DNA of 26,750 nt from a virus. Taxonomy: Duplodnaviria; Heunggongvirae; Uroviricota; Caudoviricetes. Below the pieces are notes generated by a model that made no database searches, was not told the origin of the DNA, and saw only the letters and a program-made list of their open reading frames with translations. The stretch lies in IMG/VR virus record IMGVR_UViG_2529293065_000012; one strand, written 5' to 3'. Positions within the stretch are counted from its first letter, which is position 1, and every line of letters starts with the position of its first letter. The position numbers and the translations under genes were made by a program. This document shows positions 2,940 to 11,362 of the stretch, piece by piece.

Positions 2940-3182
2940 ATGGGCAAAGAATATAAAACTCTCATTAACAAAGCACTTGAGCGTTTTTATTTTCGCTTAA
3001 GTGCATCAGGCGCTCATGCTGAACGTGCGGCCCGTGACTCATTGACCAGAGCAATCCGAAGTCTGTATGACGTGGCTTTTTACGCTGATGATCTGGATGC
3101 ACTTAACGAACTTTCCGAGCTGATCTGTGCCGCAGAATGCGGGGAACATATTGAACCGTATAAGCTGGGGAATATCGCATGA
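2940..3182 (+). CDS. Hypothetical early protein (80 aa)
   Basis: The ATG at 2940 follows a GTG at 2937. The stop overlaps the next small ORF (ATGA at 3179-3182). Confidence 0.6.
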   Translation: MGKEYKTLINKALERFYFRLSASGAHAERAARDSLTRAIRSLYDVAFYADDLDALNELSELICAAECGEHIEPYKLGNIA

Positions 3183-5138: not shown

Positions 5139-7946
5139 ATGACGGCAGAGTACATCAGGGACTGGCAACAACCGCGCCACGCAGTGGGGCGTGAAGGAAC
5201 GGGGATCCCCGCTCCTGAATCCGCGCTTTCCTCCTGGCTGGATGCCTACCGGGTAGAGAACGAGCGCTGCCAGGAAATGGCTGATGCGGCGTTCTCCGCA
5301 ACGCCGCTGGGCAACCTGATTAATAAAAGCCTGGACGCACAGGAAAAACAGGACAAAACCATCACACTGGCAGGAGACGCCAGAAAACAGGCACGCGGCG
5401 CGGTGGATGAAGCCATGGCTTCGCTGCGCCTGCTGCCGTCCTATCTGCGCGATCCGCTTATTCGCCCCCTCTCCTTCCTGCGCAAAAAACAGGAAGCCGA
5501 TCGTCAGAAAGGCAAAAAGAGCTGGCAGGCTGAACGCTACGCGCGCGGAAACCTGCGCAAAATATTCGAACGTCTGGAGCGCACCGATCACCGCTGGCTG
5601 ACACAGGGTTATCGCTCCCTTGCCGGACGCGAACGCCTGGATGATTTGCTTTACCTGCCGCAGCTCAACCAGCACCAGATACAGACGCTGGCCACCATGA
5701 CGGCGGCGATGTTCAGCAGCACCTTCGAAAAACTCTGCGATGGCTTTGGCGCGACCGATGGCGAACTGACCATGGATGTAACGCTGAAGGCGTATCAGAT
5801 GCTGGCCCGCATGGGGTTACACCTGCACGCCATGCCGCCACATTACGAAGCTCTGAACAAGAGCGATCCGGATACGGAACTGTTACCGGGCGCAATCCTT
5901 CGCCTGACCTGTGCGGAATGGTGGAAACGCAAACTGTGGCTGTTACGTTGCGAGTGGCGGGAAGAACAACTCCGCGCCGCCTGTCTGGTTTCCAGAAAAA
6001 CATCGCCCTATCTGAGCCAGGACGCGTTAAGCGAGTTTCGCGCACAGCGCGAGAAAACACGCGATTTCCTGAAAAGTTTCATGCTGGAAAACGAAGACGG
6101 GTTCACGATTGATCTCGAGACAGTGTATTACGCGGGAGTAAGTAACCCGGTTCACCGTAAGGCAGAAATGATGGCCACCATGAAGGGGCTGGAACTTCTG
6201 GCCGAAGCCCGTGGCGACAAAGCGGTGTTTCTGACCATCACCTGCCCGTCAAAATACCACGCCACAACAGAGAACGGTCATCCGAATCCCAAATGGAACG
6301 GGGCCACCATGCGCGACTCCAGCGATTACCTGGTTAACACGTTTTTTGCGGCGGTCCGCAAGAAACTGAACCGCGACGGCCTGCGCTGGTATGGCATCCG
6401 CACGGTGGAGCCTCACCATGACGGCACCGTGCACTGGCATATGATGGTCTTTGCTCATCCGGAAGAAATCGACACCATTGTGTCCCACACCCGCGATATT
6501 GCCATTCAGGAAGATCGTCACGAGCTGGGTGATGATATTACCCCACGCTTTAAGGCGGAGTACGTCGACGGCTCAAAAGGCACGCCAACCAGCTACATCG
6601 CCACCTACATCGGAAAGAACCTGGACAGCCGCGCCGTAGATGGCATCGACCCGAAAACGGGCAAGCCACGCGTTGACCACGAAACCGGAAAATCAATGGC
6701 CGAGAGCGTGGAACGCGCCATCGGCTGGGCGCGCCTTCACCGTGTCCGCCAGTTCCAGTTCTTTGGTATCCCCTCCCGTCAGGTGTGGCGTGAACTCCGC
6801 CGCCTTGCCAGCCAGATGGCACGCAACCCGGAAGGCCCGCAACGGCTGAAGGATGACGCAATGGATGCGGTACTCGCTGCCGCTGATGCCGGATGTTTTG
6901 CCACCTACATAGAGAAACAGGGCGGCGTACTTGTTCCACGCCAAGACTACCTGATTCGCACCGCCTACGACCTCGCAGATGAGCTGAACGATTACGGCGA
7001 ACAGAGCGTACAGATTTACGGGATCTGGTCGCCGCTCATCGGGGAGTCTTCCCGCGTATGCACGCATCCGGATAACTGGAAGCTGGTAAGACGCAAACCG
7101 GAAGCGGAAGACAGCTCCCACGAAAATGGTTTTGACCTTCAGGGCGGCCCTGCCGCCCCTTGGACTCGTGGCAATAACTGTCCCCGTGTACAGGAAACGG
7201 ACAACAACGGGACAGAACAGCCGGAAGAACGGCCAGCACCGTGGCCGCAGCTTCCTGACGGCGTTGACGTGAATGAATGGATGCGCTCACTGAAACGGCA
7301 CGAACGCCGGGCGCTGATGCGTTCGCTGCGTGACAAACAGGCAAAAAACAGCAGTGATGAAATGCAGAACTGGACACAGAGCCGCAAACAGCCACAGCCT
7401 TTGCCTGATAACCACGAGTTACTCGCTAAAGAATGGCGGGAGTCTGCTGAATCTCTCGGCCTGCATATCGGTGAACAGCAGATGCAGCACCTGTTACGGG
7501 GCGGCAGTCTGTACGTTGACGGCAGCATCATTGCACCGCAGGGATTTGAAATTGTACGCAAACCGGATACCCGCCCGGACAGCCGAATCACGCAGCTCTG
7601 GCAACGCCTGAGTCGTAATCACGGCGTAAGCAGCACGGAGATCCGCCATAACCCGGTCGCCAGCTATCTGGAACAACTAGAGGCATCAGACCCTGAAGCC
7701 GCCGCACGCCTGGCATCCACACTTCAGCAAGACCAGAACACCATGAAAACACCAGTTACCGTACTTTCTGACATGCTGCGCGCCATCCGCGACGCAGAGC
7801 ACGCACAGAGAATCAGTGAAACCACTGAACGCGCCCGCCGCAAAGCAGACCTGCTGCGGGGTGGCCTGAGCAGTGGAAACAAAAAACAGACAAAAACGGG
7901 ATTCACAAATCCCGTAAATGAGCAAAAAACGCGCCGCGATATATGA
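5139..7946 (+). CDS. A: Rolling-circle replication initiation endonuclease (P2 gpA family), 935 aa with a long C-terminal tail
   Basis: FLTITCPSKYH, VEPHHDGTVHWHMMVF (HUH-type metal motif) and YIATYIGKN (paired catalytic Tyr) parallel P2 A FITLTCPSKYH, VEPHHDGTPHWHMMLF and YIAKYISKN. The start codon is uncertain because the SD is weak. Confidence 0.9.
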   Translation: MTAEYIRDWQQPRHAVGREGTGIPAPESALSSWLDAYRVENERCQEMADAAFSATPLGNLINKSLDAQEKQDKTITLAGDARKQARGAVDEAMASLRLLPSYLRDPLIRPLSFLRKKQEADRQKGKKSWQAERYARGNLRKIFERLERTDHRWLTQGYRSLAGRERLDDLLYLPQLNQHQIQTLATMTAAMFSSTFEKLCDGFGATDGELTMDVTLKAYQMLARMGLHLHAMPPHYEALNKSDPDTELLPGAILRLTCAEWWKRKLWLLRCEWREEQLRAACLVSRKTSPYLSQDALSEFRAQREKTRDFLKSFMLENEDGFTIDLETVYYAGVSNPVHRKAEMMATMKGLELLAEARGDKAVFLTITCPSKYHATTENGHPNPKWNGATMRDSSDYLVNTFFAAVRKKLNRDGLRWYGIRTVEPHHDGTVHWHMMVFAHPEEIDTIVSHTRDIAIQEDRHELGDDITPRFKAEYVDGSKGTPTSYIATYIGKNLDSRAVDGIDPKTGKPRVDHETGKSMAESVERAIGWARLHRVRQFQFFGIPSRQVWRELRRLASQMARNPEGPQRLKDDAMDAVLAAADAGCFATYIEKQGGVLVPRQDYLIRTAYDLADELNDYGEQSVQIYGIWSPLIGESSRVCTHPDNWKLVRRKPEAEDSSHENGFDLQGGPAAPWTRGNNCPRVQETDNNGTEQPEERPAPWPQLPDGVDVNEWMRSLKRHERRALMRSLRDKQAKNSSDEMQNWTQSRKQPQPLPDNHELLAKEWRESAESLGLHIGEQQMQHLLRGGSLYVDGSIIAPQGFEIVRKPDTRPDSRITQLWQRLSRNHGVSSTEIRHNPVASYLEQLEASDPEAAARLASTLQQDQNTMKTPVTVLSDMLRAIRDAEHAQRISETTERARRKADLLRGGLSSGNKKQTKTGFTNPVNEQKTRRDI
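7892..7919. repeat. Copy 1 of a 28-bp direct repeat containing the 20-bp palindrome ACGGGATT-CACA-AATCCCGT
   Basis: The palindrome lies at 7896-7915, inside the last codons of A. It is repeated 73 bp downstream. Confidence 0.8.
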
Positions 7947-8022: not shown

Positions 8023-8982
8023 ATGAAAATTTGTATCGACGACGGCTCCACCAACATCAAGCTGGCATGGACTGAGAACGGCGAATGCCGCAACGCCATC
8101 AGCCCGAACAGCTTCAAGTCGGAATGGTCTGCGCCGTTCGGTGTCACGCAGCCCGCGAACTACATGCTTGATGGCGTGCGCTATGGTTTTGATCCGGTCA
8201 GCGATCGCTTTGTCCAGACGACCGACACGCAATACCAGTACAGCGATGTGAATGTCATTGCCATTCATCACGCGCTGGTCAAATCAGGCATCACGCCACA
8301 GGAAGTGGATGTGGTTGTCACCCTGCCACTGAGCGAGTATTTCGACACAAACGCACAGCCGGATATGACCAACATCAACCGCAAAAAAGCGAACGTCATG
8401 CGCCCGGTGGAGTACCAGAACGGTGAGGCATTCACTATCCGTAACGTGCGGGTTATGCCTGAATCCATTCCGGCTGGCTTTAAGGCACTGGCTAACATGA
8501 GTCCGTTTGAATCCCTGCTGATTGTGGATTTAGGCGGAACCACGCTGGATGTGGCAAAGGTTCAGGGGCAACTGGCAGGTATCAGCCAGGTGTTTTGCGA
8601 TCCACACGTAGGCGTTTCTCTGATGGCCGATGCCGTACTGTCGGTGATGGCCACTAACGGTATGCGCACCAGTCACCACATCGCCAATACCATTATCGAA
8701 CATCGCCATGATGAAGCCTGGCTGCGCCAGCACATCCACAATGACGCGCATTACGCCAGCCTGATGGCGGTTATTCGTGAAAAGGAAGAAACACTGAAAC
8801 AACGCGTGATCCGCGCGCTGGCGGTTTTTTCGGGTTACGGGCGGGTGATGGTTGTCGGTGGCGGGGCGGAGATTGTGGCACCCGCTATCCGCGAAGCCTG
8901 CGGAGTTAATGCGACTTTCATCGCGGACGGGGTGCCACAGTTTGCTCTGGTTAATGGGCTGTACGCAATGGACAAGGAGTAA
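8023..8982 (+). CDS. parM: ParM/StbA actin-like plasmid segregation ATPase (319 aa)
   Basis: Colinear by eye with R1 ParM along the whole length: IDDGSTNIKL, ISPNSFK.EW, QYSDVNV.A.HHAL, RKKAN, VMPESIPAG, DSLLI.DLGGTTLD, GISK/Q, GVSL, FSGY..VMV.GGGAE, LVNG.Y. Confidence 0.9.
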   Translation: MKICIDDGSTNIKLAWTENGECRNAISPNSFKSEWSAPFGVTQPANYMLDGVRYGFDPVSDRFVQTTDTQYQYSDVNVIAIHHALVKSGITPQEVDVVVTLPLSEYFDTNAQPDMTNINRKKANVMRPVEYQNGEAFTIRNVRVMPESIPAGFKALANMSPFESLLIVDLGGTTLDVAKVQGQLAGISQVFCDPHVGVSLMADAVLSVMATNGMRTSHHIANTIIEHRHDEAWLRQHIHNDAHYASLMAVIREKEETLKQRVIRALAVFSGYGRVMVVGGGAEIVAPAIREACGVNATFIADGVPQFALVNGLYAMDKE

Positions 8983-8986
8983 ACCA

Positions 8987-9301
8987 ATGACGACATCAAC
9001 CAGACGGATAAGTTTCTATCTGAAGCCAGACGCCGTCAAGAGTGAACAAGAGGCGTGCAATTACCTCGATAGCCTGCCAGCCTCCGAACGCAGCCGCGCG
9101 CAACGCGCGGCCTTTCTGGCCGGACTGGCACTCATAAAACGCAACCCAGCATTTGCCTACTGGATGGCCGAATGGCCAGAGGATAACCTCCCCTTCAATA
9201 CCATTAGCACCAAGGAAACATACCAAGATAATCCGCCTAGCGGAATTGAATGCAATTTTTATAAAATAAAAAAGAATATTCAGACCTTATTCCCTGAATA
9301 A
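8987..9301 (+). CDS. parR: ParR/StbB-like centromere-binding adaptor (104 aa)
   Basis: RRISFYLKPD...LDSLPASERSRAQRAAFLAGLAL parallels R1 ParR RRTIAFKLNPD...LDSIPQGERSRLNRAALTAGLAL. The start was taken at the ATG at 8987, 5 nt after the parM stop, rather than the track start at 8852, which overlaps parM. Confidence 0.75.
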   Translation: MTTSTRRISFYLKPDAVKSEQEACNYLDSLPASERSRAQRAAFLAGLALIKRNPAFAYWMAEWPEDNLPFNTISTKETYQDNPPSGIECNFYKIKKNIQTLFPE

Positions 9302-9350: not shown

Positions 9351-9373
9351 GGCACCCTTGCTAACAGGGTGCC
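9351..9373. terminator. Hairpin between the convergent parR and 280-aa genes (no clear U-tract)
   Basis: GGCACCC (9351-9357) pairs with GGGTGCC (9367-9373) around a 9-nt loop. It sits between two converging stop codons. Confidence 0.35.
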
Positions 9374-10267: not shown

Positions 10268-10765
10268 TTATTTGTTTTTCCGTAAAGGATTAGCTTTCCA
10301 TCTTCTTACTAACCATTCGAATTCTTGATATGTAGTATCCGAATTAATGCTTTCTCTGATTGCTTTAATTAATGGCTCGGCAATATCATATGTCTCTACA
10401 ACTGTTGTGTAAGATGTTCTTTTTATCATTTTTTCATCATAAATACCTTCACGAATACTTACAGCAACTCGCTCGTAAAAATTTAAAATATATTGAAATT
10501 TTCGACGCTCGGCCATTTCCTCATCTGTTATTGTACAACCATCACAAGGAAAAACATAAGAACGAAATGATTTGCCTGAACGATGCACTTGTTTCAGGGT
10601 ATGCAATGACTCTATATATTGCATATCTTGCCGACTCTCAAAAAGAAAGTTAGCCGTTTGAGTTTTCTTTGCGGTACGCACATTGTAGATAATGGTTCCA
10701 ATGGCAACCAAAACGCCAAGCAGAACAATAGCATTGCTGATGATTTGTAGTGTTATTGGGTTCAT
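10268..10765 (-). CDS. Unknown N-terminally anchored protein, 1 TM plus a helical domain, possibly DUF4760-like (165 aa)
   Basis: The N-terminal helix is ITLQIISNAIVLLGVLVAIGTIIYNV. The core ILNFYERVAVSIREGIYDEKMIK resembles what I remember of DUF4760, but this is unverified. It is the first gene of an AT-rich two-gene operon, 39 nt upstream of the 280-aa gene. Confidence 0.75.
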   Translation of the reverse strand: MNPITLQIISNAIVLLGVLVAIGTIIYNVRTAKKTQTANFLFESRQDMQYIESLHTLKQVHRSGKSFRSYVFPCDGCTITDEEMAERRKFQYILNFYERVAVSIREGIYDEKMIKRTSYTTVVETYDIAEPLIKAIRESINSDTTYQEFEWLVRRWKANPLRKNK

Positions 10766-10778
10766 CCTATTTCATCCA

Positions 10779-10807
10779 TAAAAAAGGCGGGGAGCAAATC
10801 CCCGCCT
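10779..10807 (-). terminator. Canonical intrinsic terminator on the minus strand, 14 nt upstream of the 165-aa gene start
   Basis: The minus strand reads AGGCGGGGA-TTTGC-TCCCCGCCT followed by TTTTTAT. This is a 9-bp GC-rich stem, a 5-nt loop and a U-run. No U-run occurs in the plus orientation. Confidence 0.7.
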
Positions 10808-10826
10808 CATTAGAGGTCAACGTAGC

Positions 10827-10862
10827 TTAGAAACCATCAAATTCATCATACATTTTTTTCAT
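10827..10862 (-). CDS. Candidate 11-codon leader ORF (MKKMYDEFDGF)
   Basis: The minus strand reads GAGGGGG-TTGAT-ATG, a strong SD with a 5-nt spacer. The stop lies 19 nt before the terminator stem. It is too short to judge from coding statistics. Confidence 0.3.
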   Translation of the reverse strand: MKKMYDEFDGF

Positions 10863-10885
10863 ATCAACCCCCTCATAGAAATCAT

Positions 10886-10902
10886 AACCACGTTTTGTGG
10901 TT
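10886..10902 (-). other. Small leader hairpin (AACCAC / GTGGTT) between the candidate promoter and the leader ORF
   Basis: A 6-bp stem with a 5-nt loop, seen directly in the sequence. Confidence 0.4.
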
Positions 10903-10914
10903 TTTGTGACGCAT

Positions 10915-10943
10915 AAACTACATCAAAGGCAAGCCACGGTCAA
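10915..10943 (-). promoter_or_regulatory. Sigma70-like promoter candidate for the cargo operon (TTGACC-17 nt-TAGTTT)
   Basis: On the minus strand the -35 TTGACC lies at 10943-10938 and the -10 TAGTTT at 10920-10915, with an exact 17-nt spacer. The predicted TSS is near 10908, about 128 nt upstream of the terminator U-run. Confidence 0.4.
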
Positions 10944-10962
10944 ATATATAGGCATGCTTACC

Positions 10963-10989
10963 TGCACAAAAGTGCACAAATTTGCACAA
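10963..10989. repeat. Three TGCACAA motifs with exact 10-bp phasing
   Basis: TGCACAA occurs at 10963-10969, 10973-10979 and 10983-10989 (minus strand TTGTGCA x3). The repeats lie between the cargo promoter candidate and the cos candidate. Confidence 0.6.
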
Positions 10990-11020
10990 TTTTTTTGAAC
11001 GACTTTTTGCCCTTCCGGCC

Positions 11021-11039
11021 CGCGTGGCGGCTGGAGCCG
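11021..11039 (+). other. Candidate cos cohesive-end core
   Basis: CGCGTGGCGGCTGGAGCCG partly matches the remembered 19-nt cohesive ends of 186 (GGCGTGGCGGGGAAAGCAT) and P2 (GGCGAGGCGGGGAAAGCAC), sharing the GCGTGGCGG core. Its position and orientation relative to Q are as in P2. Confidence 0.3.
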
Positions 11040-11059
11040 TCAAGGATCCGTGCATGCAC

Positions 11060-11083
11060 AAAAAAACGCGCTTTTTCTGCGCG
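11060..11083 (-). terminator. Minus-strand terminator-like hairpin with a T7 run downstream of Q
   Basis: The minus strand reads GCGCG-AGAAAAA-CGCGC followed by TTTTTTT. The stem is a short 5 bp, all G-C. Confidence 0.4.
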
Positions 11084-11362
11084 CAGGTGACGGGGGAACA
11101 GCCCGCGTTTCAGGGGGTAAATAGCATCCCCTGAACGATGTCGCAGCGACACAACAGAATGGCTGTATTTCTCACGCTGAGCGTGAAGAATACGTGAGGG
11201 ATTCTGATTTGATGGGGTGAAAGGTAAGGCCGTCAAAATCGCACTGAGGCGGCGAGAACATGCAGTCAACGCGGTGGGATTGCGTAAGAGTCTGACCGTC
11301 GATGGTGGCGATAAACTGGAAGGCGTCGTGAAATTATCTGACTGATACAGGAGCTGGAGAGT

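Follow-up and report, generated by a model that had tools for sequence, protein, structure and literature searches.

The leader of the DUF4760 gene

The window analysed here is the whole of a 26,750-nt stretch of viral DNA (IMG/VR record IMGVR_UViG_2529293065_000012, Caudoviricetes), which holds a P2-like prophage (Peduoviridae, Xuanwuvirus/P88-type). On its minus strand, on which all leader elements were read, a leader starting at position 10943 contains an 11-codon open reading frame (ORF), hereafter called the micro-ORF, followed by an intrinsic terminator and by the gene of a 165-residue membrane protein of the DUF4760 family. Judged by comparison of homologous loci, this micro-ORF is a conserved protein-coding micro-gene and the family-wide companion of DUF4760 in prophages of Proteobacteria. 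The elements of the leader and the gene that it precedes are the following (SD, Shine-Dalgarno sequence; TM, transmembrane).

10943–10938, minus strand: −35 hexamer TTGACC; TTGAC(T/C) is kept at equal distance from the −10 hexamer in homologous leaders
17 nt, minus strand: promoter spacer
10920–10915, minus strand: −10 hexamer TAGTTT, weak, with 3/6 consensus matches; TAATTT in homologues, where it lies in a dyad's right half
10917–10933, minus strand: candidate operator CTTGCC-tttga-TGTAGT, a degenerate form of the dyad ATTACC-N5-GGTAAT with 4 mismatches to it
10902–10886, minus strand: 5'-proximal stem-loop AACCAC-aaaac-GTGGTT, found by scan and by folding
10874–10868, minus strand: SD GAGGGGG, with a 5-nt spacer to the micro-ORF start
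10862–10827, minus strand: micro-ORF of 11 codons, MKKMYDEFDGF plus TAA (10829–10827), unannotated
10836–10823, minus strand: stop-codon hairpin UGGUU-UCUA-AGCUA, with the stop in its loop; clade-specific
10820–10812, minus strand: anti-SD segment UUGACCUCU, which can pair with the SD region (10864–10872) and so enclose the micro-ORF; clade-specific
10808–10780, minus strand: intrinsic terminator GAGGCGGGGA-UUUGC-UCCCCGCCUU plus U-run (stem 10808–10784, T-run to 10780)
10779–10766, minus strand: 14-nt gap from the T-run to the DUF4760 ATG (10765)
10765–10268, minus strand: DUF4760 gene, 165 aa, with an N-terminal TM helix and a helical domain; putative partner of the micro-ORF

A sequence-only reading of the same DNA had proposed the promoter-like TTGACC-17-TAGTTT, the AACCAC/GTGGTT hairpin, the mini-ORF with its strong SD and the terminator, and all of them were found in place on the minus strand. 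The arrangement goes far beyond chance: dozens of diverged loci show the same elements in the same order. The promoter predicted to drive the cassette is of the sigma-70 type, and only TTGAC(C/T)-17-TA(G/A)TTT keeps its position among homologous leaders. A consensus scan missed its −10 hexamer, because TAGTTT fits only three of six positions, and proposed GTCACA-18-TATGAT (10910–10881), which was rejected for lack of conservation in homologues. A promoter between terminator and gene was also rejected, as 14 nt are available there and a TTGACC at 10820–10815 has no −10 partner. The terminator stem counts 10 pairs, seven of them G-C, and ranks first among the 16 terminator-like sites that a scan of 7 kb gave. 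In the terminator-bearing leaders inspected, the DUF4760 start closely follows the T-run and leaves no room for a promoter; therefore the downstream gene or genes must be transcribed through the terminator, as that reading had supposed from the 14-nt gap. The predicted fold of the transcript comprises the 5' hairpin, a long-range helix joining the SD region to the post-stop segment UUGACCUC, and the terminator.

A conserved micropeptide gene paired with DUF4760

What the sequence-only reading missed is that its mini-ORF is, on the comparisons reported here, a conserved coding gene paired with DUF4760. The pattern was first seen in four diverged copies, all of which keep …(F/Y)DEFDGF-stop through synonymous changes. 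The peptide is MKKRYDEFDGF in an E. coli plasmid copy, MNKAFDEFDGF in a second P2-like E. coli prophage (73% nucleotide identity) and MKKVFDEFDGF in the Citrobacter phage Shae_phiSM; the terminator stems of these first copies differ by compensatory changes. A degenerate DNA pattern for (F/Y)DEFDGF-stop gave matches in 73 viral contigs and 29 species genomes, and at approximately 50 of the matched loci a DUF4760 ORF begins 40 to 72 nt past the micro-ORF stop.

As such a scan presupposes the peptide, a second sample of 153 loci was fetched by DUF4760 protein homology alone. It represents 112 distinct upstream regions and spans 34 DUF4760 clusters at 70% identity, or 11 at 50%, including those of Pseudomonas, Acinetobacter and Alteromonas phages, in which DUF4760 is 26–37% identical and the DNA unrelated. 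A micro-ORF of 7 to 21 codons, preceded by an SD, opened by ATG or GTG and encoding an acidic-aromatic C-terminus, was present in 108 of the 112 regions, versus none of the 112 for the reverse complement and for 20 dinucleotide shuffles per region. Of the four exceptions, one carries an inserted insertion sequence (IS), one has lost the stop, one ends in the variant NEGWDF and one is a weak, partial match to DUF4760. Endings include DEFDGF, DEYDGF, DEYDWF, DEFEGF, DEYEGV, EEYEGI, DEFEWV, DENDG[FY], DDYDGI, [NSMQ]EGWDG[FY] and EGWDG, and one sub-clade has xxIGG[LF]. Among 94 distinct micro-ORF loci, 93 have an SD-like motif 4–14 nt ahead of the start.

The nucleotide variation follows the code. 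Among the class-A sequences, of which there are 35 distinct nucleotide versions, only synonymous variation is seen in the six conserved codons and in the stop (GAT/GAC, 23:12; GAA/GAG, 19:16; four Gly codons; TAA/TGA), and the codon two positions ahead of the motif takes 15 forms. Because the variation is synonymous only, and because the ending is kept while the nucleotide sequences of the clades are unrelated, these alignments indicate that selection purifies the peptide, not the RNA. No coding sequence is annotated at the micro-ORF, which was absent from every annotation inspected, and a literature search yielded nothing relevant on a DEFDGF or EGWDG peptide or on DUF4760 function. The data suggest that the micropeptide gene and DUF4760 form an undescribed two-part phage cargo system.

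Copies without DUF4760

Intact orphan copies, with promoter, ORF and terminator and with only convergent genes downstream, were found on the E. coli plasmid pGPT24-02-C (L004, NZ_OZ282456, locus 2990–3125) and in three Xenorhabdus species (L064/L101, L093 and L098/L107); the DNA fetched around them contains no DUF4760. They differ among themselves by synonymous changes. In X. stockiae, the convergent downstream genes look, from their sequence, like a HigB/HigA-type pair.

The motif can also be repeated within one peptide, as in NEGWNGF…MEGWDGF upstream of DUF4760 (L257) and at three further loci (L012, L031, L050); among these repeats are LDEFEGFDEFDGF and, in a T4-like contig, a peptide with four repeats. 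Moreover, micro-ORFs with this C-terminal motif are found in Enterobacterales phages, lytic or unrelated, that have no DUF4760. In the Karamviruses CC31 (L016/L265) and PG7, an unannotated micro-ORF lies directly upstream of gene 47; in CC31 it shares sequence with the 3' end of CC31p053, and a hairpin stands between it and gene 47. Kuravirus NJ01 (L011/L067/L266) has a micro-ORF with the motif, Proteus lambdoid phages (L009/L033/L048) have one directly after Q and the late terminator, and a T4-like contig (L019) has one as well; the micro-ORFs of all these numbered loci end DEFDGF-stop. In several such phages, a second ATG stands 4 nt past the micro-ORF start and begins another small ORF, longer and in the +1 frame (MTN[LS]M…).

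That lytic phages, temperate phages and a plasmid carry the motif in the absence of DUF4760 fits an independent micro-gene whose peptide hits another host or phage target, for instance as a mimic of the tail of the single-stranded DNA-binding protein SSB; DUF4760 would then be linked but unbound, and the terminator would insulate it. E. coli SSB ends DDDIPF, and in phage T7 the tail of gp2.5 ends …EEADEDGDF and gp4 ends …NDTDF. With the SSB and gp2.5 (…DEDGDF) tails, the micropeptide shares an Asp/Glu cluster, often a Gly, and an aromatic or hydrophobic C-terminal residue with a free carboxylate. However, those are tails of large DNA-binding proteins, whereas here the motif is approximately the whole gene product, and the resemblance is one of composition only. 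The near-obligatory linkage to DUF4760 (108/112 regions) and the overlap of the two ORFs in the deepest clade, described below, favour a dedicated partnership, so that an independent role seems quite unlikely to us.

Some loci carry altered copies. The micro-ORF of L213 has lost its stop and gained a 4-residue extension (…DEFDGFYIMK). In L106, from Trabulsiella guamensis, the micro-ORF is kept and a deletion has fused the region of the terminator with the mid-part of DUF4760. Both L054 and L061 have no start codon and an eroded terminator.

Terminator and RNA structures among homologues

A hairpin with a T-run lies between micro-ORF and DUF4760 in 74 of the 94 distinct loci, a count in which a few GW-clade calls fall inside coding sequence and are likely false. 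At least eight unrelated stems were seen (GGCGGGG, ACGGGGCC, AGGAGGCC, GCGGAGC, ATCGGAGG, GGCGCT, CTACCCGCC and AACCACTC); across these homologues it is the position of the terminator that is selected, not its sequence. In most clades the stem begins 13–23 nt past the stop, in some up to approximately 50 nt. The deep EGWDG(F) super-clade has no terminator between the ORFs, which overlap or abut (TAATG, TAGTG, ATGGCTGA).

Covariation among homologous leaders revealed compensatory changes in the terminator, the 5' hairpin and the stop-codon hairpin. The class-A terminator is 92.9% paired, with double changes from G-C to A-U. The 5' hairpin is kept in the P2-type clade with differing sequences (GACTAC/GTAGTC, TTCAC/GTGAA, CCAC/GTGG), and the stop-codon hairpin is 87% paired in 28 leaders, with two pairs double-changed in 7–8 sequences (CGGCU/AGCCG versus UGGUU/AAUCA). 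The SD:anti-SD helix, present in the minimum free energy fold of the window, is 74.5% paired in class-A leaders; in P2-type loci its duplex energy is −10 to −18 kcal/mol. It was rejected as a family-wide feature, being clade-specific and absent elsewhere.

These structures bear on the proposal that the terminated RNA of approximately 128 nt is itself the functional product, as a small RNA (sRNA) or a ToxI-like antitoxin with an incidental ORF. The RNA of the window does fold compactly into 5' hairpin, long-range helix and terminator (z = −2.2 versus shuffles), its structural elements covary within the P2-type clade, and a terminator separates the small product from the effector, as in ToxIN. 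Yet positions 10780–10943 hold no tandem repeats, the sole array being TGCACAA x3 upstream of the promoter. A permissive Rfam 15 scan of 10600–11100 gave no family at gathering score (best, SorX with 19.3 bits versus 46.6). Between clades, the RNA sequence and most structures vary, while the encoded C-terminus is kept with purely synonymous variation. DUF4760 is not an RNase of the ToxN/AbiQ type either, since it has no PADLOC match, belongs to Pfam DUF4760 and is modelled as an all-alpha TM protein. We therefore regard a function at the RNA level as very improbable, and the sRNA or RNA antitoxin of the sequence-only reading is not supported.

The same reading had likened the layout to ribosome-mediated attenuators. 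As in the trp, his, leu and pheA leaders, an SD-preceded ORF and then an intrinsic terminator stand directly upstream of a structural gene, and one segment of the window has two alternative partners. The likeness ends there, and a classical attenuator is not supported: MKKMYDEFDGF has no regulatory codon run, no antiterminator is conserved, and the downstream DUF4760 does not match a pathway. The peptide sequence is itself conserved, and the architecture persists without a terminator, as in the deepest clade, or without a downstream gene.

A related cis-acting explanation is a leader that senses translation, in which the nascent …DEFDGF or the position of the ribosome decides on terminator readthrough or, in the overlapping clade, on DUF4760 initiation. 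A disturbance of translation, such as one that comes with infection, would thereby induce DUF4760. Regulatory nascent peptides (TnaC, SpeFL, Erm leaders, MAGDIS) typically have conserved residues right next to the stop codon, and the micro-ORF shares with TnaC, SpeFL, ErmCL and the MAGDIS upstream ORF its very short length and the conserved residues directly before the stop. In the window, UUGACCUC pairs either with the SD region (approximately −12 kcal/mol) or with the 5' arm of the terminator, in a trp-like 1:2 / 2:3 / 3:4 geometry. The conserved hairpin has the stop codon in its loop, and the micro-ORF of lytic phages overlaps the starts of other ORFs. A ribosome that stalled in the clade with overlapping ORFs would sit over the start of DUF4760.

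The energetics and the distribution of these elements argue the other way. Pairing of UUGACCUC with the terminator 5' arm amounts to −8.3 kcal/mol in the nascent RNA of the window, versus approximately −20 for the terminator, and this 2:3 pairing is not conserved (5' arm −1.5 to −8 kcal/mol, with a mean z of approximately 0 versus shuffles in 28 leaders). The SD:anti-SD helix is limited to one clade. From established footprint sizes, a terminating ribosome covers approximately 10 nt past the stop, and the terminator stem mostly lies beyond that reach. Unlike in TnaC, SpeFL and the Erm leaders, no rut-like site or masked SD target was found here, the hairpin is beyond the ribosome footprint, and there are tandem motif repeats and free-standing copies. 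The repeats, together with EGWDG-stop versus EGWDGF-stop variants, shift the register to the peptidyl-transferase centre. Finally, the deepest clade has no terminator to control and the orphan copies have nothing downstream for a leader to regulate. Taken with the points in its favour, translation sensing in cis is possible but unlikely.

Two further features of the leaders were noted. Of 51 distinct class-A upstream regions, 28 contain the dyad ATTACC-N5-GGTAAT with no more than 2 mismatches, mostly as a perfect copy (examples, L055, L007, L047 and L079), and they include non-P2 backgrounds. The dyad overlaps the promoter spacer and the −10 hexamer and resembles an operator; the cassette encodes no DNA-binding protein. 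Secondly, an IS4-family element (IS421 in MSI001) sits inside the terminator loop or 3' arm (…GAGGCGGGGATTTGCTCCC|IS…) in L003 (E. coli MSI001), L059 and L114. This insertion, which recurs in several contigs, splits promoter and micro-ORF from DUF4760.

DUF4760, its neighbours and the prophage setting

The 165-aa protein matches Pfam PF15956 with E = 1e-34 and 120 bits, against a cut-off of 25, over profile positions 2–141 of 141, and falls in PHROG 2284, a family of unknown function; NCBIfam gave no match for it. Its AlphaFold2 model (pLDDT, predicted local distance difference test, 92.5) is an all-alpha TM protein. The family counts 2,568 clusters at 50% identity and is common in prophage cargo hotspots. 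Compared with the EP domain of the plant proteins EDS1/PAD4/SAG101, sequence identity is 7–11% and the Foldseek E value 0.2–0.5; unlike these proteins, DUF4760 is anchored in the membrane and lacks a lipase-like domain, and it is not known to associate as a heterodimer. In deep-clade loci, the DUF4760 N-terminus before the TM helix reads LGE[ST][YW]GFW or AYGFW (L188, L190, L257, L249, P0138, P0174) and resembles the …EGWDGF of the peptide, a likeness that may be a coincidence or a shared binding mode. A link to the validated TIR + TM system of the P2-like phage AC1 was rejected, as the 1-TM protein of that system shows no relationship with DUF4760 (hhalign probability 0.1).

The other genes considered in the window are listed below.

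5139–7946, plus strand: gpA replication protein gene
8023–9301, plus strand: ParM/StbB partition genes (StbA_N and Plasmid_stab_B domains)
10228–9386, minus strand: gene of a 280-aa multi-TM protein, accessory to the cassette
12460–11414, minus strand: portal gene
14211–12460, minus strand: terminase gene

The 280-aa protein (PHROG 12528, also a family of unknown function) is confined to the E. coli P88-type variant of the cassette and accompanies DUF4760 at 22 of 211 loci. Its N-terminal 75 residues match Csx27 weakly (PADLOC E = 4e-5), a membrane protein tied to type VI-B CRISPR. Between the convergent ends of its gene and stbB lies a G+C-rich hairpin, GGCACCCT…AGGGTGCC (9351–9373), which has no T-run on the minus strand and may terminate the plus-strand partition operon.

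Megablast against phage genomes showed that P88-type backbone homology, read from the portal gene toward the cargo, ends at approximately 10963; therefore the promoter at 10943 and all that follows it belong to the cargo cassette. P88 holds other genes at this place. Among 5,426 complete E. coli genomes, 299 have the leader of the window, and many of these belong to sequence type ST131. The cassette lies in the cos-proximal region between gpA and gpQ, a defence and diversity hotspot of P2-like phages, in which the order "DUF4760 + StbA + Plasmid_stab_B …" recurs many times in the supplementary table (Rousset et al. 2022, PMC9122126). About one quarter of P2-like phages have a putative partition system (PMC9122126), and the partition module of the window, which adjoins the cargo inside the prophage, agrees with that statement.

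Three copies of TGCACAA (minus strand, TTGTGCA), with an exact 10-bp spacing, stand directly before the cassette promoter (10963–10989), and a fourth copy lies 72 bp from this array (11055–11061). The array adjoins the presumed cos region (approximately 11010–11045), is kept in P2-like backbones including those of Xenorhabdus, and probably is a protein-binding array for packaging or regulation.

A proposed mechanism

We favour, with about an even chance of being right, a reading in which the micropeptide is a trans-acting partner of DUF4760, and a leaky terminator keeps the peptide mRNA in excess in a ToxIN-like layout. Action in trans is proposed because of the orphan copies, the repeats within one peptide and the motif in phages that lack DUF4760. 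Overlapping ORFs, as in the EGWDG(F) clade, are usual for interacting partners and therefore support the partnership. The terminator is regarded as constitutive and leaky because the antiterminator pairing is weak and no better than in shuffles.

Most transcripts would thus end at the terminator, and the resulting RNA of approximately 128 nt would be abundant and translated into peptide; a minority would read through, so that DUF4760 would be made in small amounts. The terminator would set this ratio, as in ToxIN, and would not act as a switch; in the deep clade, overlapping translation could achieve the high peptide-to-DUF4760 ratio. Most likely, the peptide would act directly on the helical domain of DUF4760 in the cytoplasm, as its ligand or its antidote. 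A peptide of this length is expected to be labile, and shut-off of host expression on infection would then free DUF4760. Lytic phages with the same motif may carry mimics that counter DUF4760, and the 5' stem-loop might stabilise the transcript.

A bolder version, tentative and in our estimate unlikely, is a new two-component defence or addiction module of prophages, in which a labile micropeptide of 7–21 residues, kept in excess by the terminator, would restrain a membrane-anchored effector whose soluble domain has the EP fold of EDS1-family immune proteins of plants; loss of host expression on infection would release the effector, and the copies in lytic phages (Karamvirus, Kuravirus and others) would be counter-defence mimics. 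The effector would in that case sense the free acidic-aromatic C-terminus of the micropeptide.

Several points weigh against a trans-acting partner in a defence setting. DUF4760 has no match in the PADLOC defence models, and it is not among the validated systems in the main text of the P2-like hotspot survey (PMC9122126). No natural fusion of peptide and DUF4760 was found among N-terminally extended homologues. The SD:anti-SD helix of P2-type leaders would lower translation of the finished short RNA, a poor fit to an abundant peptide. Cargo replacement could have left the orphan copies behind as recent remnants, and the micro-ORF of lytic phages is ambiguous, as its +1-frame overlap makes a role in cis possible there. 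Lastly, the motif expressions used to count micro-ORFs were composed after inspection of the data, though the controls gave zero.

Relation to known systems

The likeness to ToxIN and AbiQ put forward in the sequence-only reading was borne out for the layout of small product, terminator and effector, and not for an RNA antitoxin. ToxIN, AbiQ and CptIN have the same order of promoter, small upstream product, intrinsic terminator and effector, on mobile DNA in a context of phage defence, and in both cases the terminator would bias the ratio toward the upstream product. In contrast, their small product is an RNA with 36-nt repeats where an 11-aa peptide is predicted here, and their toxin is an endoribonuclease where DUF4760 is membrane-anchored, all-helical and only hypothetically toxic.

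Protein toxin-antitoxin pairs offer a second comparison, with a small partner encoded first, adjacent or overlapping genes and a location on mobile elements. SpoIISA-SpoIISB, in which a small protein is the antidote of a membrane toxin, resembles the present pair in that the gene of a small acidic partner adjoins that of a protein with a membrane anchor and a cytoplasmic domain. The partner here, however, has 7–21 aa, far below known protein antitoxins, there is no sequence relation, and its function is hypothetical.

Significance

Compared with a generic leader, the finding is of greater interest, in that the sequences point to an unannotated, family-wide micropeptide gene. The near-obligatory partner of DUF4760 is too short for gene callers and was missed as a gene. 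Under the hypothesis put forward here, this micro-gene would recast a "hypothetical membrane protein" as a module of peptide plus effector with a built-in expression ratio. The phage micro-ORFs that carry the motif may be peptide mimics, and would then constitute a possible anti-defence catalogue. If the EP-like fold of DUF4760 reflects homology, it would add a further tie between phage-borne systems and eukaryotic immune domains.

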